Positions 2,542 to 64,000 of a DNA stretch of 64,000 nt are shown piece after piece (the stretch's first letter is position 1; each line of letters opens with the position of its first letter). The position numbers were made by a program, and so were the translations under genes. The notes below the pieces were generated by a model. It searched no databases. It saw nothing but the letters and a program-made list of their open reading frames with translations, and was not told where the DNA came from. The stretch comes from Candidatus Micrarchaeota archaeon (GTDB lineage Archaea > Micrarchaeota > Micrarchaeia > Micrarchaeales > CABMGC01). The stretch covers positions 677,155 to 741,154 of the forward strand of contig JAJYVH010000001.1 in assembly GCA_021792095.1 (NCBI GenBank). Direction: 5' to 3'.

Positions 2542-5463
2542 TTACCTGCATGTGGCCGATGCGCTGAACCAGCCGCAGTTGCTGGCCGTCTGGCAGGAGT
2601 TGCCGCCCGAATCGATGTTGCTGCTGCTGTTCCCTATGCTCGAGCCGGCGCAGTAGACCGACGCCTTGCTTGAGTCGGAGAACATGTTGCTCTGCATGCT
2701 GCTCCTTGTAGTGTTGTCGAGGTATGCACCGTAGGCGCTGTCCTGCACCGTGTTGTTGGTCACTGTGAGCGCGGTGGAGTTGGTGAATGTCAGGCCGTAG
2801 GAGTTGCCGTAGAGCCTGTTGTTGTACACGTTGGTCTCTGTGGCGTTCGCCACTGTTATACCGCTTGTCCCGTTCTGTATCACGTTGTCGTACACGCTGG
2901 AGAACCTGCCGCTGAGCACTATGGCGTTGCCCGCACGCACTATAGTGTTGTTGTGTATGCTGGACCCCTGGCCGTTGCCCTCGATGCCCGTCGTGAAGTT
3001 GACAAGGAGGCAGTCAGAGATGCTGACTCCAGACGCGTTTGATATATCAGCGAAAGTGCCCCCGTGCTCCGCGTAGACAGTGTGGCCTTCGCAGTCTATG
3101 CTGGTGGTGTTTGCGGAACCGGCCTTGTTCACGTATATGCCGAAGCACGTGGAGCCGCTCGTGAAGAGCAGATCGCGGTTGAACACTACGCTGCTAGGTG
3201 AGAAGAAAGAGGTGCAGGATGGTCCCTGGACCACGCCGCTTGTCTCCACCAGCCAGTCGCAGCCTGCCTTGGTTATGCCTGAATCTACGCTTATCGGGTT
3301 GGAGTACACGCCGGTCGATGTGCCGCTGCACACGTAATCACCTGCCTTGTTGGAGCTCGCGCTGTCGTTGTACACAGTGTTGTTCCTCGAGTTCCCGAAG
3401 TAGAAGCCGTAGCCCGGGTTGCTCGTGGCGCTGTCGAAGCCTATGTTGTTGCGTGTGGCGTTTATGAAAGCGAAGCCGTATGCGCTGCCTGCGCCTGCGC
3501 CCGCGGTGCTGTTCACCACGCTGCTTTCAGCGAGGCGGGTGAGGTTGAAGCCGTAGCCCGTGGCACCGGAGACATGGAGCGACGCAAGCGTGCTGTAGGT
3601 CACGTTGTAGAGCCTCAGTCCGGCAGAAACGCCGCTGAAGCTATCCGACTGGAGCTTGAGGCGAGTGGAGCCGCTGGCGTTCACGCCGAAGGCGAAGTTG
3701 CTGGCCGTGCAGTTGGAGATGCTAACGTTGCTCTCGTTGGCCACGAGGAAGGCGCTGCCGAGCCCCGAGCCGCGTATGCTGTGGCCGTTGCAGCTGAGCG
3801 ACACATTGCTCGCGGCCACTGACAGGCACGTGCTCTGCGCGATAATGTCCTGGCTGAGCTGATACGCGCCCGGCCTCGTTATGGTCTTGCACGAGCTGAC
3901 AGGGTACAAGGAGAGGCTCGGAAGCACTGTCTGCTTGCAGGACGCCGACGCCCACTTGCAGCTCGTCAGGCCGCACGAGAAGCCCTGGGCCAGGTCGGTA
4001 GTGGAGTTGTAAGTGTAAGGCGTGCAGTAGAGGTCGGAGTCTGTGTTGTTCGACGACGAGCCGCCGTTGAACACAGAGCCATAGCCTGAATTCATGTAGA
4101 TGCCGTACGTGTTGTTCCTCGCGTTTGTGTTGTAGAAGAGCGTGCCAGGCGACGAATTCACGAACAGGCCGTAGGTGTCATGGAGCGCCTTGCTGTTGGA
4201 AACTGTGCCCGCAGCAGTGCCGTTCATGGACAAGCCGTAGGTGTCGTTGCTGAAAGTAGAGTTGCTTATGTCAGGCTTGAACGACTGCGACATGTAAACA
4301 CCGTAAGTGTCGTTGTTGAGCACGCAGCCGGATATGCTCACGTTGGGCACCTGGCCCACGTAAATGCCGTAGCTCGAGTCGTGTATCTGCCTTCCGGAGC
4401 AGGTCAGGCTGACGTCCGGCGCAAGCACGCGTATGCAGGAAACGCCATTGGAGAGAGCGCCCTGCTTGCCGGCGTATGCTGCCGTGCTTATGTCGCTCTC
4501 CAGGGCATAGTTGCCCGATATATATATAGTGCCGCACGTGTGCACCGGGCCCGGAGCCAGGCTCACGCTGGAAAAGTTGAACGGCACGTTTGTTGCGCAC
4601 GTCGCAAAGCCGCAGAAGTTGTTGACAGAGCAGGTGGAATTGGTGAACGTGCCGGCATCCTGCGTCGCTGCCGAGGCGTTGCAGATGAGATCGGTCGGAT
4701 TGCTGGCAAATGCATCGTGCGAGAAGCTGTTGCCGGCAGCGTCTAGCACAAGCCCGTAGTACGCATTGCCCGAAGAAACATCGTGCGAGAAGCTGTTGCC
4801 GCTCCCGCTGGCAACGTGTATGCCTCCCTGCTTGCTCTGCGACACAGAGACGCTGTCGTTGCTTATGCTGTTGTTGTACGCTTCAAGCAGGTATATGCCG
4901 GAGAGCGTGGCGTTGGTGAGATGGCTGTCGGCTATGGCCGAGCTGCTGGTTGCGTTGAGGAAGACATCGTACGAGAACCTCTCAACGGTTAAGTTGGCCA
5001 CAGACACGTTGCTTACGCCCTGCAGCAGCACTCCGTACGAGTACGGCTGCGTGTCAGAGAACGGCCCGCTGCCAGTTATCCTGTACCCTCTTCCGTTCAG
5101 CGACACACCGTTCGCTGCAATCACCAGGCATGCTCCAGAAGCTTTGGTGTAGTTCAGGTTGCCGGAAAGGTAGTATGCGCCTGGCTTGTTTATGGTTGTG
5201 CACGCGCTTATCGCTGCGGCGCTTGCCTGCTGCACAGTAGTAGCGGACACGGTCGTGGGCTGGCTTGGATGGCTGGTGACCGCAAGGGCTATGGCGACAA
5301 TCACGATCAAGGCGACAACCGCTACGCCTATGGTCTTCAGCGGCAAGCCTCCGAAACGCGATCCGTACACAGGAGGAAGGGTGCCGCTCGAGCCCGGAGC
5401 CTGTTGCGACGGAGCCGCGCTATCAGGTTGGACTTGGCCCGTACCGTTTGCTTGGTCATCCAT
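2542..5463 (-). CDS. large membrane-anchored surface protein with parallel beta-helix (PbH1/NosD-like) repeats
   Basis: 973 aa with an N-terminal TM helix (IGVAVVALIVIVAIALAV). Repeats of about 22 aa recur, e.g. NDTYGVYM, NDTYGLSM, HDTYGLFV, NNTYGIYM. The protein is rich in Cys and N-x-S/T sequons. Confidence 0.7.
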   Translation of the reverse strand: MDDQANGTGQVQPDSAAPSQQAPGSSGTLPPVYGSRFGGLPLKTIGVAVVALIVIVAIALAVTSHPSQPTTVSATTVQQASAAAISACTTINKPGAYYLSGNLNYTKASGACLVIAANGVSLNGRGYRITGSGPFSDTQPYSYGVLLQGVSNVSVANLTVERFSYDVFLNATSSSAIADSHLTNATLSGIYLLEAYNNSISNDSVSVSQSKQGGIHVASGSGNSFSHDVSSGNAYYGLVLDAAGNSFSHDAFASNPTDLICNASAATQDAGTFTNSTCSVNNFCGFATCATNVPFNFSSVSLAPGPVHTCGTIYISGNYALESDISTAAYAGKQGALSNGVSCIRVLAPDVSLTCSGRQIHDSSYGIYVGQVPNVSISGCVLNNDTYGVYMSQSFKPDISNSTFSNDTYGLSMNGTAAGTVSNSKALHDTYGLFVNSSPGTLFYNTNARNNTYGIYMNSGYGSVFNGGSSSNNTDSDLYCTPYTYNSTTDLAQGFSCGLTSCKWASASCKQTVLPSLSLYPVSSCKTITRPGAYQLSQDIIAQSTCLSVAASNVSLSCNGHSIRGSGLGSAFLVANESNVSISNCTASNFAFGVNASGSTRLKLQSDSFSGVSAGLRLYNVTYSTLASLHVSGATGYGFNLTRLAESSVVNSTAGAGAGSAYGFAFINATRNNIGFDSATSNPGYGFYFGNSRNNTVYNDSASSNKAGDYVCSGTSTGVYSNPISVDSGITKAGCDWLVETSGVVQGPSCTSFFSPSSVVFNRDLLFTSGSTCFGIYVNKAGSANTTSIDCEGHTVYAEHGGTFADISNASGVSISDCLLVNFTTGIEGNGQGSSIHNNTIVRAGNAIVLSGRFSSVYDNVIQNGTSGITVANATETNVYNNRLYGNSYGLTFTNSTALTVTNNTVQDSAYGAYLDNTTRSSMQSNMFSDSSKASVYCAGSSIGNSSSNIDSGGNSCQTASNCGWFSASATCR

Positions 5464-59010: not shown

Positions 59011-62000
59011 TTATTGCTTTCCTGCGTTGCCTGCCCTGGACACGTCCGTGACCTCGATGCCGTAGACCTTGGAGTCGCCGGCGCTCTTCGCCACGCCTAT
59101 CGCAGCGTCGGCGCTCACTATGAGCGTGTCGTTGTGGCTCACCACCACGAACTGAGCGTTGCTGCTCATCTGTTTTATGAGCTGCGACAGCCTCTTCGAG
59201 TTCTCCTTGTCGAGCGCAGTGTCTATCTCGTCGAAGAGGTATATGGACGAAGGCTTGCACATGTGTATCGAGAAGAGGAGCATCATCGAGAGCAGCGACT
59301 TCTGGCCGCCGCTCATGCCCCTCTGCCTGCCCACGAAGTTGTCGTCCTCTATGCTTATCGTCATGCCAGATTCCAGCGGGCTCTTCGGGTCCTCCAGCGC
59401 CAGCGTGGCCTTGCCCGGGTAGATGTAGTTGTAGAGCCTGCTGAAGTTCTTGTTGACCTCGTTGAACGTAGTCATGAACGCGTTCATCTTCTTGGCCTCT
59501 ATCTCCTCCATCATGGCGAGCACTGCGCGCCTCTCCGACTCCAGCGTGTCCAGCTTCTCCTTAGCCTCACGCACGCTCCTCGCCTTCTCCTCGTATGCCC
59601 CGGGCGCCTTGAGGTTCACGTTGCCCAGCGCCTCGACCTTCGCGGCCACCAGCGCCGCCTCCTTCTCCAGCTGCTCCGGGTCGCCCTCGACTATAGAGCA
59701 ATCCGAGCTAACGTACGCCGCCAGCTCAGCGGTCAGGTCGTTGAGCCTGGTCGAGTTCTGGCCCTGCTTGACCAGCAGCTCGCTCGACTTCTTCTCCTGC
59801 TCGCCGGCGAGGGCCTCGGCCGTAGCTGCCTTGCTCGCGAGCGCCTCCAGCTCCCTGCTTATAGCATCCTGCTTCTCCAGCGCCTGCTTGCTGCGCTTGC
59901 TGCTGCCCAGCATCTTCGCCTCTGCCTCCCTCTGCAGGACAAGCAGCTCCTCCTTCCTCTTGGCGTCCCTCTCCAGGCCGGCCTTCGCCTCCTCCAGCGC
60001 CTTGGCCTTGGCCTCCAGCTCCCTGCCCTTCTGCGCCATCGAAGCGGCCAGCATGTCGTTCTCCTTCTGCAGCCCGGCCACCTTCATGCTCGCCTCGCGC
60101 ATCTCGGCGTTCGCGCGCTCCAGCCTCTCGCGCTCGGCCTTGCCCATCCCGTTGCCCGCGAGTTCCGCGCTCTCGCGCATGCTCTCCTCATAGGCATCGG
60201 TGCGCTCCTTCCTGAACCCATCAAGCTCTCTGGATGCCGCGGCTATTGCATCCTGCGCCGCAGCCAGCTCCTTCGCCACTCTCGTCCTCTCGCCTGCTGC
60301 CGCGTCCAGCTCCGCCCTCAGCGCCTCCAGCTTCGCAGCCAGGACCTTGTGAGCAGAGCCGTGCTCGTCAGCAAGGGCCGAGTAAGAAGCAGACTGCATC
60401 TCAGCCTCAGCGGCGCCGCTCCTGAGCGTGAACAGGCTGCTGTCCATCTCCTTGGCGCGCGAGAAGAGCCTGCCCTTCTTCTCCTCCAGCTCCCTTATCC
60501 TCCTCTCTATGGAGCCGAGCGACGAAGGCCTGCTCCTGCTGCCGCCGGAGAGTATGCCGGAGCGCTCCACCAGCTCGCCCTGCGGCGTCACCCACCTGTG
60601 CGCGCCTATGCCTGCGCGCTTCGCCGCGTCTATGCTCTCCACAAGATAAGTGTTGTTGAATACGTAAGAGAAGACGCCGTCGAACCTGTCGTCGTAGTCC
60701 AGCAGGTCGGACACCAGCTGCAGCCCCTTTACCCCGTCCTCAGGCTCCGCACGGAGCTCGCGCAGGGGTATGAAGGTGGCCCTGCCCAGGTTGTTCACCC
60801 TCAGATACGAGATCATGTCCTTGGCAGCATCGACGGAATCCACCACAAAGTAGCCGAACCTCGAGCCCGCCGCCGCCTCGATGGCCTCGGCGTACTTGTC
60901 ATCGTAGCTGCAGAGCTCGGAGACCGCCCCGTAGAAACCCTTGGACTTGCCGAACGCGTCCCTGAGCCTGCCCTGCACCGCCTGCTCGCGCGGCCTGGAC
61001 ATTGCGCGCTGCTCCTTCAGGCCTATGAGCTCCGAGTCGATTGCGCTCAGCTCGCTGCGCAGCCTCTCCGACTCGCCGCTGGCCTCCTGCGCCTCCTTCG
61101 AGAGCTTCTGCTTGGCGGCTAGCGCCGACGCGGCCTTCGCCTTGGCCTCCTCGGCCTGCGCCATCTCGCCGGCCAGCCTGTCGTTCAGCTCGCGCAGCTC
61201 CTTGCCCATTGCATCGGCCTTTGCCCCGAGAAGCGCGGCCCGTGCCTGAAGACCGGCTGCGGCCTCACGCTTTGCGGCCAGAGCCTTCTCAATATCCATC
61301 ACAGTCCCGTCGAGTTCCCTGACGCGCCTGCCGATGTCCTCGCGCACCGGGGCTGACCTGGCGCCCAGCTTCTTCGCCTCAGCCTCCAGCTCGGCTAGCC
61401 TGCGCTTGTGCTCAAGTAGCGAACCGGAGTTCGCCTCTATCCGTTCCTGCATCGAGTCGAGCTCGGAGCGCACGGCTGCCATCTCCTCCCCCAGCTTCTT
61501 CGACGAACCCTGCCAGTTGCCTATCCTCACGTCCAGCGCGCTCAGCTCGTTGCCAATCTCAGCGAACTTCTTGCCCGTGCTGTCGGCTGCGTTGGAGTGC
61601 TCCGCGAGGAGCTGCAGTAGTTCCTTCCTCTCGCCCTCCAGCTTCTGCGTCTTGCCCGAAAGCTCCTTGAGCCTAGCCGATATCTCGGCCTTGCTGGCAT
61701 CGAGCGCCCCTATCTCCTTTACGTAGGAGGCGCCGGCGAGCTCAGCCGCCTTCTTCCTGCCCGCGAGCACGCTGTACTGCAGCGACGCCCGCCTCTTCGT
61801 GAGCTGCGCATAGCTCTCAGCGGCCGCCTTCTCCTTGGCGAGCTCGTTCAGGAACACTAGCCTCTCGTCGAGCATCGCCTGGGCCGCAGCCATGCGCGCC
61901 GCCACCTTGTCCAGTTCGGTCATGGCCTCGGTCTTCTTGGCGTCGAACTCCTGTATGCCGGCCGCCACGTCTATGAACTCCCTGCGCTGCTTGGCGTTGG

Positions 62001-62433
62001 CCTCTATTATCTTGTTTATCTCTCCCTGCGCTATAGTGCTAGTCTCGTCCACGTGCACCCCGTGGCTCCTCAGCACCTCGAGCACCTCCTGCCGGGTCAT
62101 GCGCTTGCCGTTGAGCTTGTAGAGCGTCTTCCCGTCGGCGCGCACCCACTTCGAGAGCTCGACGTGCGCATCGCCGTCAAGCTCCAGCCTGACGAACGCC
62201 TTGTGGCCGGGGCCGCTGCCCCTGGCCGACGCCTCCCTTATCAGGTACTGCAGCCTGTCGACACGGAGCCTCCGGAGCGATGTCTCGCCGAGGCAGAAGA
62301 GGAGCGCGTCTATTATGTTGCTCTTGCCGGAGCCGTTCGGCCCGACGATGCAGTTGAAGCCGTTGTTGAACAGCAGGTCTGCCTTCTTGAACGACTTGAA
62401 CCTGCCTATGCTCGCAGATCGTATATGGAGCAC
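59011..62433 (-). CDS. smc: chromosome segregation ATPase SMC
   Basis: 1140 aa. Walker A GPNGSGKSNIIDA, long coiled coils with a hinge, signature MSGGQKSL, Walker B IYLFDEIDTALD. Confidence 0.95.
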   Translation of the reverse strand: MLHIRSASIGRFKSFKKADLLFNNGFNCIVGPNGSGKSNIIDALLFCLGETSLRRLRVDRLQYLIREASARGSGPGHKAFVRLELDGDAHVELSKWVRADGKTLYKLNGKRMTRQEVLEVLRSHGVHVDETSTIAQGEINKIIEANAKQRREFIDVAAGIQEFDAKKTEAMTELDKVAARMAAAQAMLDERLVFLNELAKEKAAAESYAQLTKRRASLQYSVLAGRKKAAELAGASYVKEIGALDASKAEISARLKELSGKTQKLEGERKELLQLLAEHSNAADSTGKKFAEIGNELSALDVRIGNWQGSSKKLGEEMAAVRSELDSMQERIEANSGSLLEHKRRLAELEAEAKKLGARSAPVREDIGRRVRELDGTVMDIEKALAAKREAAAGLQARAALLGAKADAMGKELRELNDRLAGEMAQAEEAKAKAASALAAKQKLSKEAQEASGESERLRSELSAIDSELIGLKEQRAMSRPREQAVQGRLRDAFGKSKGFYGAVSELCSYDDKYAEAIEAAAGSRFGYFVVDSVDAAKDMISYLRVNNLGRATFIPLRELRAEPEDGVKGLQLVSDLLDYDDRFDGVFSYVFNNTYLVESIDAAKRAGIGAHRWVTPQGELVERSGILSGGSRSRPSSLGSIERRIRELEEKKGRLFSRAKEMDSSLFTLRSGAAEAEMQSASYSALADEHGSAHKVLAAKLEALRAELDAAAGERTRVAKELAAAQDAIAAASRELDGFRKERTDAYEESMRESAELAGNGMGKAERERLERANAEMREASMKVAGLQKENDMLAASMAQKGRELEAKAKALEEAKAGLERDAKRKEELLVLQREAEAKMLGSSKRSKQALEKQDAISRELEALASKAATAEALAGEQEKKSSELLVKQGQNSTRLNDLTAELAAYVSSDCSIVEGDPEQLEKEAALVAAKVEALGNVNLKAPGAYEEKARSVREAKEKLDTLESERRAVLAMMEEIEAKKMNAFMTTFNEVNKNFSRLYNYIYPGKATLALEDPKSPLESGMTISIEDDNFVGRQRGMSGGQKSLLSMMLLFSIHMCKPSSIYLFDEIDTALDKENSKRLSQLIKQMSSNAQFVVVSHNDTLIVSADAAIGVAKSAGDSKVYGIEVTDVSRAGNAGKQ

Positions 62434-62558
62434 TCACACCACTGGTCGCAATACCCTTTTGCCATCACAGTATTAAAGCCTTGTGCTTGCAGCCGAGGGC
62501 AATCTATTTATTCCTTCCTTGAGATTTGAGTCCGATGGACCGCATGAAAACTGAAGTA

Positions 62559-62580
62559 ACACACACACACACACACACAC
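62559..62580 (+). repeat. (AC)11 dinucleotide microsatellite
   Basis: 22 nt of perfect AC repeats lie between ATG 62544 and the pilin-like coding frame. Confidence 0.95.
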
Positions 62581-62629
62581 GAGAGTCAGTCCTATAGCCT
62601 ATAGTTCTACCAGCCGTTCGCAGTCCGCG

Positions 62630-63358
62630 ATGGAGTACCTGATGACCTACGGCTGGGCCATACTCATAATAGCGGTGGTGCTGGGCGCCCTGTTCCAGTT
62701 GGGCGTCTTCAACGGCGCCACATTCGCGCCAAAGGCGCCGCCGGGCGCCTGCCAAGTCTTCAGGCCCAACGGCCAAGGCACTGCCTTCGACCTGAACCTC
62801 GAGGGCGTGTGCAACGGCGAGCTGCCGGAGTATGTAGCGCAATTCAACGGACAATATGGCTTTATAGAAGCTACCGTAACTGACATTCCTACAGGTACTG
62901 AACAGAGAACAATAAGTGCATGGGTGTATCCTTTCGATTTAGCTGATAGAGGATGGATAGGTTATGGCAACACGCTAGCTGCAGATGAATTCACAGGCTG
63001 GTTTCAGACGGGTGTTTCAGGTGCCAGTCTATGGGGTAGTAATATTTATGTTCCTGCAGCAGCAAGCACATAGTATTTCACGGTCATAGAATATACAGGT
63101 ACACAAATTACTATGTCCTCTTATTCAAACAGCCAGGAATCTACAAATTCGTTGACTGTTAGTGCAAGTACATCCTCTACACCCTTGATTATAGGAGCTA
63201 AATCTGGTGGAAATGGGCCCGGTGGTTTTTACTTTAATGGTCAAATAGCAAATGTCCAAATCTACAACATATCCCTCTCAGGGCTCTTAACTTTAAGTAA
63301 GGAACCCTTGCCATATTCTTTTATACAGGGTTTGATGGAGGAGATAGAGGAAGATTAG
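62630..63358 (+). pseudogene. class III signal peptide (archaeal pilin-like) LamG-domain protein, disrupted
   Basis: MEYLMTYGWAILIIAVVLGAL is the pilin-type hydrophobic core, and the in-frame upstream codons read SRSQSA with no start codon. LamG blocks are FNGQYGFIE, RTISAWVYP and FYFNGQIANVQIYNISLS. An in-frame TAG at 63071-63073 joins ORFs 62630..63073 and 63113..63358. Confidence 0.65.
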
Positions 63359-63569
63359 GCTCTTTGTCTCTATATCCTTTTTTGCCTATTCTAGAGTACA
63401 GGAAATAGCCAATAACACCCCCCGCGATTACAATGATAGCGATATAAAGTGCCAAAAATGGGAGGGCTAAACTTCTTTCTGCAACAATAAACCCAGAAAC
63501 AAGTCCACCAAGTATTGCAACAGAATAACTTTTTATGAACTGGTCCCATTTTTCATCATCTATTTTCAT
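63321..63569 (-). CDS. small two-TM membrane protein
   Basis: 82-aa AT-rich ORF with two hydrophobic helices. Confidence 0.35.
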   Translation of the reverse strand: MKIDDEKWDQFIKSYSVAILGGLVSGFIVAERSLALPFLALYIAIIVIAGGVIGYFLYSRIGKKGYRDKEPNLPLSPPSNPV

Positions 63570-63597
63570 TAAATCATCGCTGATTATTTTGGTTTAT

Positions 63598-63876
63598 TTA
63601 TACTGCTCCTTTCCCTCTTTCTGCTAACCATTTGGCACCCTTAGGATAAAGCCATATCAATCCTATCGCAAACAATATCGCTCCGGCCATTATACCGATA
63701 AAGAACCAAAAGATACCGGTGAATAACGAGCCAAAGTTAGAAACGCTTGATACTGCTTTATGGTAATAGTTAGTATAAACTATATCAGATGCAACGAAGA
63801 GTGCAATCGCTATGACTATGAAGATTGCACCTATGATTTGCTTTGCCTTCATCACTCTGATATTGTTACAACACAT
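63598..63876 (-). CDS. small membrane protein (2-3 TM)
   Basis: 92-aa AT-rich ORF with hydrophobic helices. Confidence 0.35.
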   Translation of the reverse strand: MCCNNIRVMKAKQIIGAIFIVIAIALFVASDIVYTNYYHKAVSSVSNFGSLFTGIFWFFIGIMAGAILFAIGLIWLYPKGAKWLAERGKGAV

Positions 63877-64000
63877 TTAAATTGCTGTTATATAATAAAG
63901 TACAATTATATGCAATCAATTTCAAAACTGGGTCTAGTGATACTTGTTATAATGATTTTGTTATCATTAGGGAGTATTATTTTAAATGCTTATGATTATC

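Follow-up and report, generated by a model that had tools for sequence, protein, structure and literature searches.

An (AC)11 tract in the leader of a probable pilin-like LamG pseudogene of Candidatus Micrarchaeota, and its counterparts in the gene family

Introduction

Does an (AC)11 microsatellite lying between an upstream start codon and the reading frame of a pilin-like gene switch that gene on and off, or is it a trace of gene decay? The question is raised by a locus at the end of a 64,000-nucleotide stretch of DNA from a Candidatus Micrarchaeota archaeon (assembly GCA_021792095.1, contig JAJYVH010000001.1), the whole of which is termed the window below. We consider it very likely that the window locus is a pseudogene, and that its AC tract is an inherited feature of the gene family and not an accident of decay.

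Phase variation by repeat slippage is a hallmark of host-associated bacteria, and DPANN archaea such as Micrarchaeota are attached to host archaea. A full-text literature search revealed no established phase variation based on simple sequence repeats (SSRs) in archaea or DPANN, in agreement with the initial annotation of the locus, which knew of no such case in archaea. Archaeal distributions of phase variation were named as future work in a 2025 review (PMC11868660).

Reading frames around the AC tract

The window locus comprises a promoter-like element, a leader-coding part with the tract, and the body of a pilin-like gene with a jelly-roll domain:

62504-62512, plus strand: TATA-like box CTATTTATT, read from the sequence, with TTTATT from 62507.
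62535-62558, plus strand: candidate ancestral start and first eight codons, MDRMKTEV, including the ATG at 62544.
62559-62580, plus strand: (AC)11 microsatellite in leader-peptide coding DNA, encoding (TH)n and out of frame with the pilin body at n = 11.
62581-62629, plus strand: post-tract leader coding DNA, RVSPIAYSSTSRSQSA in the pilin frame, ending in the conserved R-S-Q-S-A, the presumed prepilin-peptidase site (family motif from 215 homologues).
62630-62850, plus strand: conserved N-terminal module, from the pilin-like hydrophobic helix MEYLMTYGWAILIIAVVLGALF through ELPEYVAQFNG, with a guanine-plus-cytosine (GC) content of about 59%.
62851-63282, plus strand: variable LamG (Laminin_G_3) jelly-roll region, GC about 42%, like other family members.

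The ATG at 62544 opens MKTEVTHTHTHT..., which runs through the tract and ends at the TAG at 62595-62597. The pilin frame contains a TGA at 62552-62554, then reads ...SNTHTHTHTRVSPIAYSSTSRSQSA-MEYLMTYGWAILIIAVVL into the annotated open reading frame (ORF) at 62630-63073, and from 62630 onwards ...SRSQSAMEYLMTYGWAILIIAVVL; a scan of the sequence revealed no ATG, GTG or TTG in this frame between the TGA and the Met at 62630. Every coordinate that the initial annotation had given for the tract, the ATG at 62544, the TGA, the TAG and the TATA-like box was confirmed. When the tract length was varied in silico, the two frames were fused at n = 7, 10, 13 and 16 and not at n = 8, 9, 11, 12, 14 and 15. 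Loss of one AC unit or gain of two (n = 10 or 13) joins the upstream ATG frame to the pilin-like N-terminus, which bears out the fused precursor that had been predicted.

The tract was scored 44 by Tandem Repeats Finder with 100% matches. The only other dinucleotide run of at least five units in the 64 kb of the window, by Tandem Repeats Finder and a regular-expression scan, is (AT)5 at 4518, so that (AC)11 lies far beyond chance.

Nine nucleotides upstream of the ATG at 62544, and in the same frame, another ATG at 62535 yields MDRMKTEV. The distance from TTTATT (62507) to this codon is 28 nt, the usual archaeal TATA-to-start distance. Because of this spacing, and because MDRMKTEV matches the MGRMKTEV of the in-frame homologues P0005, P0121 and L023a and of the loci L016/L023, the ATG at 62535 is probably the ancestral start of the pilin-like gene. 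The frame opened at 62544 in the initial annotation is real and ancestral; its likelier first codon is the one at 62535. The spacing also suggests an mRNA that is leaderless or nearly so. By sequence alignment, the box TATTTATTC stands at the same spacing in the loci L005, L016, L023 and L007.

Lesions of the window copy

Three lesions were found in the window copy: the frameshift at the AC tract, a Trp-to-amber change, and a 1322-bp insertion. The latter two correspond to the following features:

63071-63073, plus strand: TAG nonsense codon at the Trp (TGG) of the W-x-F-[VI]-A motif; its X is aligned to the consensus W by hhalign.
63275-63282, plus strand: left copy of the 8-bp direct repeat CTCTCAGG, like a target-site duplication; the second copy (contig L001, 11968-11975, equivalent to window 64597-64604) lies past the window end.
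63283-64000, no strand assigned: left 718 of the 1322 bp of the insertion, 34% GC, following ...IYNISLSG; the window ends inside it.

At least 90% of homologues share the W-x-F-[VI]-A motif, in which W196 is nearly invariant, and TGG is converted to TAG by a one-base change. Recoding of TAG, for instance as pyrrolysine, was ruled out, given that TAG serves as the stop in 19 of the 49 long ORFs of the genome and that the codon sits at a conserved Trp.

The insertion corresponds to L001 10654-11975, is flanked by the CTCTCAGG repeats and has the sub-terminal inverted repeats AAGTAAGGAACCC/GGGTTCCTTAGTT. Its three ORFs (63321-63569 and 63598-63876, both on the minus strand, plus one of 257 aa) encode small multi-pass membrane proteins of 82, 92 and 257 aa; no Pfam family was found for the three and no transposase in the insertion. 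From its sequence, the insertion looks like a non-autonomous mobile element or a cargo cassette. The C-terminus of the gene (PEVNALYLEGIGGAPIDLHNLVGWW...SGYTTP*, also written PEVNALYLEGIGGAPIDLHNLVGWWSLNGNANDYSGNENNG...SGYTTP*) resumes 1322 bp downstream in the contig of the metagenome-assembled genome (MAG), at 62% GC and outside the window. With the insert excised in silico, the reading frame was again continuous over a family protein of full length. A simple loss of the gene's 3' end was therefore replaced, as an explanation, by the 1322-bp insertion with its 8-bp direct repeat.

A search of 5.8 billion protein clusters revealed no allele of the window protein that was in frame or extended at the N-terminus. 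As at a contingency locus, the SSR of the window copy lies within a coding region and has a unit length that is not a multiple of 3; the intact ORF expected behind the repeat is missing. The disabling lesions, together with the same sequence in all assemblies and runs, are those of a pseudogene. From the pair of explanations initially offered, 'phase switch (or decay)', decay was upheld, and a live switch at the window was contradicted by the TAG, the 1322-bp insertion and the fixed (AC)11.

Fixation of the tract

(AC)11 was identical in four independent assemblies, namely the NCBI MAG GCA_027363595.1 (contig DAHXQW010000003.1), two ENA assemblies and one JGI metagenome. Logan contigs of eight acid-mine-drainage and sediment runs from two studies span 62300-62650 with (AC)11 and without gap or mismatch. 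Because the tract is unchanged in the four assemblies and gap-free in the eight runs, we conclude that it is not an assembly artefact, a possibility that had been raised at the outset. No indel at the window tract was seen in Logan contigs from 12 DNA runs, contigs which are uninformative for rare length variants because unitigs break at shared modules.

A different junction was observed in seven of the eight runs (X1-X3, X5-X8), where Logan contigs of roughly genome-like depth have an AC run joined directly to ATGGAGTAC (ATGGAGTACC...), the 49-nt post-tract leader (62580/62630) being skipped. The probable source of these contigs is a paralogue whose tract is long. The protein search revealed no protein with (TH)n-MEYL.

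A pilin-LamG family of Micrarchaeota

Using the product read through the internal stop as query against the same protein clusters, 2973 homologues were retrieved, mostly of about 300 aa and mostly named LamG proteins of Candidatus Micrarchaeota/Micrarchaeia MAGs. Alignment of the read-through protein to the family profile with hhalign gave a probability of 100% over positions 17-247 of 306. Pfam PF13385 (Laminin_G_3) matched it with 29.7 bits (cut-off 27.6), the match spanning the TAG; intact homologues scored 41.9-57.1 bits. Sequence comparison thus places the window gene in a large pilin-LamG family of Micrarchaeota (DPANN).

The leader with which family members start has a median length of 19 residues (range 3-63) and [KR]-[A/S/L] at its end, and the motif [KR]-[ASL]-QSAMEYLMTYGWAILII was found in 215 of 240 homologues. 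In 110 homologues, the Q, S, A and E of [KR]-x-QSAMEYL are invariant and the Met of MEYL nearly so; the residues before the Met at 62630 do belong to a conserved region of the cleavage type, as had been proposed. After the leader comes a nearly invariant module, QSAMEYLMTYGWAILIIAVVLGALFQLGVFN...PPGxCQVFRPNGPG...GELPxYVAxFNG, then a variable middle and the conserved C-terminus IANVQIYNTSLS..EIQALYLEGIGGAPIDLQNLVGWWPLNGNANDYSGN. The N-terminus resembles an archaeal type IV pilin (class III) signal in its basic leader, the Glu at +5 and the hydrophobic stretch of about 22 residues.

In the structure of the intact homologue P0005, predicted by AlphaFold from a 110-sequence alignment, the leader (residues 1-41) is disordered and residues 42-65 form a helix; a beta jelly-roll follows, and values of the predicted local distance difference test are 85-97 in the core. 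Foldseek matched the predicted structure to pentraxins and LamG with a probability of 1.0, and a profile search of the PDB likewise returned LamG/pentraxin domains.

Contig depth was 500 to 16,000x at 62633-62669 (MEYLMTYGWAIL-coding DNA) versus 7 to 45x in the flanks; the N-terminal module is therefore near-identical in very many genes and organisms of these communities. Proteins P0259-P0271, of about 75-150 aa, have an identical QSAMEYLMTYGWAILIIAVVLGALF N-terminus and a different, Cys-containing C-terminal part …GTSCVASSGYLCQ…; judged by their sequences, these short proteins, those of 130-150 aa among them, are candidate major pilins of the same system. A 5'-truncated family fragment (…RLQSAMEYL…, 56 aa) without start codon or AC tract was located at L008 99-1335, directly after an AbiEii toxin-family gene.

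AC tracts across the family

JGI metagenomes and the GTDB species representatives, which do not include the MAG of the window, were scanned with the pattern ACACACACACAC-N{42,72}-CAGTCNGCNATGGARTA. The scan yielded three JGI contigs and 11 contigs in the GTDB species representatives, all of the latter in Candidatus Micrarchaeota MAGs; one MAG contributed six contigs with the pattern and another four loci. Together with loci reached via homologous proteins, 22 Micrarchaeota loci were found to carry (AC)6-16 at the same leader position of pilin-LamG genes. In 189 kb of family-locus DNA, AC runs of at least five units were confined to the sense strand and to positions 49-80 nt ahead of a MEYL ATG. 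At the protein level, at least two TH units were present in the leader of 6 of 271 family proteins.

In-frame members have the arrangement that the window copy has lost. The intact P0005 (324 aa) starts MGRMKTEVKSTHTHTQLSAK...RKLRSQSAMEYL, and P0121 starts MGRMKTEVERARTNTHKQ...YRSQSAMEYL. The L005 DNA shows the box TATTTATTC, then ATGGGGCGCATGAAAACTGAAGTAA, then (AC)8 in frame, and the same promoter, MGRMKTEV start and AC tract in frame with RSQSAMEYL are common to L005/P0005 and L023a. The window region upstream of MEYL is homologous codon for codon to these in-frame leaders. This comparison shows the upstream ATG and the (TH)n leader to be ancestral.

With respect to the conserved upstream ATG, 9 of the 22 loci are in frame, or ON (L005, L006, L012, L013, L019, L021, L022, L023a, L024), and 13 are out of frame, or OFF. 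Nine of the out-of-frame genes could be read to the end, and six of these (L014a, L014b, L015, L016, L020, L025) have intact bodies of 266-304 codons with the conserved C-terminus; in four of the six there is no alternative in-frame ATG, GTG or TTG before MEYL. Single MAGs contain four to six AC-tract loci, with ON and OFF mixed. Between L009 (n = 12, OFF) and L021 (n = 14, ON), 110 of 110 bases upstream of the tract and 162 of 170 downstream are identical, and L005 (n = 8, ON) and L010 (n = 14, OFF) have both flanking modules in common. The length of (TH)n varies freely, often out of frame, within a leader that is predicted to be disordered and presumed to be cleaved, which speaks against a function of the (TH)n peptide itself.

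Orthologous loci were recognised by the divergently oriented neighbour of the pilin-like gene:

59011-62433, minus strand: SMC gene, an ORF of 1140 aa.

Pfam SMC_N and SMC_hinge are recorded on the identical SMC gene in the contigs L001/L002, and the SMC start and the intergenic DNA are alignable with L016, L023 and L007. Among the SMC-adjacent orthologues, L023a is an intact ON gene (323 aa) with (AC)8; in L016, where (AC)7 is accompanied by an additional AAGC unit, an intact 304-codon body is OFF; in L007, a degenerate tract is in frame and the body is deleted. Two observations had been named initially as speaking against a switch, a fixed (AC)11 and orthologues lacking the tract. The former was found in the contigs, whereas the orthologues L023a and L016 do carry tracts.

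Other repeats and possible module exchange

Further repeats were noted in family loci. G10 at L009 533-542 and G8 at L010 488-495 lie exactly at internal LamG frameshifts of two OFF genes; the frame would be restored in L009 by G8 or G11 and in L010 by G7 or G10. In the SMC-adjacent alleles, (AAGC)n/(CAAG)n directly follows the AC tract (L016 217-240, L023 150-169, L007 217-228), and the one AAGC/CAAG unit that L016 has more than L023a contributes to their frame difference.

Two pre-tract modules (TATA + MGRMKTEV; TATA + MEAEKL) and two post-tract leaders (AACTAAGCGCC..., AAGCAAGCTAGC...) were found in all four combinations (L005, L007, L009, L010, L016, L021, L023). Because of this, the AC tract also looks like a junction for recombination or shuffling. 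Beyond the tract, alleles with identical promoter, leader and N-terminal modules have unrelated LamG regions between conserved ends (L009 versus L021, L009 418-904; window 62851-63282), and the variable LamG region has a GC fraction of 0.37-0.47 versus 0.55-0.65 in its flanks. This pattern suggests cassette-like exchange of the ligand-binding part. At L023 1100-2480, an ATPase-like gene (...GIRRSGKSTLV...) stands between two tandem pilin-LamG genes, and at L007 420-555 a deletion has left the first pilin gene's N-terminus fused to roughly the final 30 codons of the ATPase-like gene.

A possible family switch

In the mechanism that we propose for the family, transcription would start just before the ATG at 62535, as judged from the TATA spacing, so that (AC)n would lie within the first roughly 25-50 nt of the coding sequence, in the leader peptide. 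Slippage changes the frame because the repeat unit is 2 nt. Since the leader is presumably cleaved off and, by prediction, disordered, it would tolerate (TH)n of any length. At n = 11, the leader would end at 62595-62597 and the pilin body would remain untranslated; in this genome, the OFF state would have been made permanent by the Trp-to-amber change (63071-63073) and the 1322-bp insertion after 63282, in an allele fixed in every sample examined. The tract would be the inherited hypermutable element of a subfamily and, by analogy with bacterial signal-peptide repeats, a slipped-strand ON/OFF switch in the intact paralogues and orthologues.

Perfect long tracts, tract length changing faster than flank substitutions, mixed ON and OFF loci per genome and intact bodies behind OFF leaders together form the classic comparative signature of contingency loci. 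We therefore put forward, tentatively and as a possibility that falls just short of the probable, a multi-locus contingency system of Micrarchaeota, in which (AC)6-16, sometimes with (AAGC)n and poly-G, would switch pilin-LamG paralogues by slipped-strand mispairing and would act as a junction for module reshuffling. Reversible switching, leader cleavage and leaderless initiation are inferred. The window copy may then be a burnt-out member of such a system.

Several results weigh against this proposal. No length variant of the window tract was found in the 12 data sets (assembled contigs of four assemblies and eight runs), and three metatranscriptomes of the same study contained nothing from the window locus. 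Three OFF genes, the window copy included, are truly broken, so that part of the OFF class is plain decay. The frame differences of L012 versus L014a and of L005 versus L010 stem from other indels near the tract and not from n. Coverage is low in some MAGs (a k-mer coverage of about 1.7 in DX2.bin58), and individual tract counts could therefore be off. Finally, no pilin-class match (for example PF04021) was obtained, whether against Pfam (E up to 10) or against NCBIfam (E up to 1); 'pilin-like' denotes a resemblance by motif and predicted helix, not a demonstrated membership.

Alternative explanations

Were the window locus itself a live, reversible switch, a functional protein of surface filaments would be produced by cells with (AC)10 or (AC)13. 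In silico the frame logic holds, the tract is perfect and long, and homologous loci are polymorphic for ON and OFF; even so, a restored frame would be read for about 180 residues until the amber codon ended it within the LamG fold, the insertion cuts off the C-terminal 59 profile positions, and (AC)11 is invariant throughout the 12 data sets, which leaves this explanation most improbable. Nor does translation from the Met at 62630, with the tract as an irrelevant part of the 5' untranslated region, fit well. This start was chosen by gene callers here and in about 20 other family members, and the MEYL Met is nearly invariant. However, the product would lack the basic leader and the Q-S-A that precede MEYL in 215 of 240 homologues, it would still be cut to 147 aa by the TAG, and the DNA upstream is, as described above, homologous to in-frame leaders; we regard this start as very unlikely. 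An assembly chimera across the repeated pilin N-terminus could be suspected behind the tract or the GC drop, since the N-terminal module has a 100- to 1000-fold excess depth, which fragments de Bruijn graphs, and GC falls from about 60% to about 37% past about 62850. Yet the identical join is present in 10 contigs of NCBI, ENA and JGI assemblies, up to 0.2-1 Mb long, and past the insert with its 8-bp direct repeat the MAG contig is again at 60% GC and contains the C-terminus of the interrupted gene. The GC fall is explained by the variable LamG region, natively low in GC across the family, and by the low-GC insertion. A chimera as the source of the GC drop was thus ruled out, and for the locus as a whole its likelihood is negligible.

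The remaining alternative concerns the family. The AC tract might be kept mainly as an unstructured, CA-rich translation enhancer after the start codon of a leaderless mRNA, with length changes and frameshifts as by-products. In E. coli, CA repeats downstream of a start codon strongly boost translation of both leaderless and leadered mRNAs (Martin-Farmer & Janssen 1999, as cited in PMC9031893), and in the family the tract is always AC on the sense strand, starting from about 15-30 nt past the conserved ATG, with the TATA element about 28 nt before that ATG. An enhancer could thus explain the origin of the tract and its constant strand. On the other hand, it would not need 11-16 perfect units, selection for it would keep the frame, and the 13 out-of-frame loci, six with intact bodies, are left unexplained; moreover, the effect was shown in E. 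coli and not in archaea. As the main reason for the tract, an enhancer seems unlikely, and it is compatible with the switch model and not exclusive of it.

Discussion

In Neisseria opa, a multicopy adhesin family, (CTCTT)n in the signal-peptide coding region brings about translational phase variation by slipped-strand mispairing. By comparison, opa is the closest known analogue of the pilin-LamG family. In both, an SSR with a unit that is not a multiple of 3 lies in the part of a surface adhesin gene that codes for a cleaved signal or leader, the adhesin role and the leader cleavage being putative for the family described here. Also in both, several paralogues per genome occur in mixed ON and OFF states, OFF bodies are intact, and a variable ligand-binding region lies between conserved ends. 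Unlike opa, the present family belongs to an archaeal (DPANN/Micrarchaeota) host, its repeat is the dinucleotide AC, its signal is class III prepilin-like rather than Sec, its mRNA is probably leaderless, the window copy is dead, and reversible switching is putative. General background on phase variation is given in PMC11868660.

The homopolymer contingency loci of Campylobacter, Haemophilus and Helicobacter, poly-G/C among them (PMC11868660, PMC3315296), are hypermutable SSRs that, like the AC tract, lie in the 5' coding region of surface genes, and G8 and G10 at internal frameshifts of two family members recall them; unlike those loci, the main repeat here is a dinucleotide and the host belongs to another domain of life. 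With the E. coli CA-repeat enhancer, as it is reported in PMC9031893, the family has in common CA/AC repeats just after a 5'-terminal start codon; that enhancer was described on synthetic bacterial constructs, and the out-of-frame alleles found here are unaccounted for by it.

Archaeal type IV pilin-like proteins with class III signal peptides have been treated by Makarova, Koonin & Albers (2016, as cited in PMC5498576). Golyshina et al. noted that LamG-like jelly-roll proteins are expanded in the cultured 'Ca. [quoted passage not shown] The present family is like these proteins in its basic leader up to [KR]-x, the Q-S-A-M-E, the predicted helix of about 22 residues, the LamG body and its occurrence in acid mine drainage Micrarchaeota. 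It differs from class III pilin-like proteins in giving no Pfam or NCBIfam pilin match and in its unusually long leaders (median 19, maximum 63). An AC tract in the leader of pilin-like LamG proteins was not described in the literature searched.

For annotation, the lesson is that 'MEYL...' gene calls in this family deserve suspicion, as many family members so called are probably OFF-phase or mis-started genes.

The window feature itself is an ordinary pseudogene, and the behaviour of the family would be a variant form of a known mechanism, seen in another domain of life. The expanded LamG/pilin-like proteins of the cell surface are among the foremost candidates for recognition of the host (PMC5498576). 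If true, the family switch would give Archaea their first described case of SSR-based phase variation, acting on proteins of presumed episymbiont-host contact. Stochastic switching and shuffling of these proteins would help to explain how episymbionts with tiny genomes vary their host range or evade pressure from hosts and viruses, and would mean that contingency loci, as a strategy, have also evolved in a second domain.

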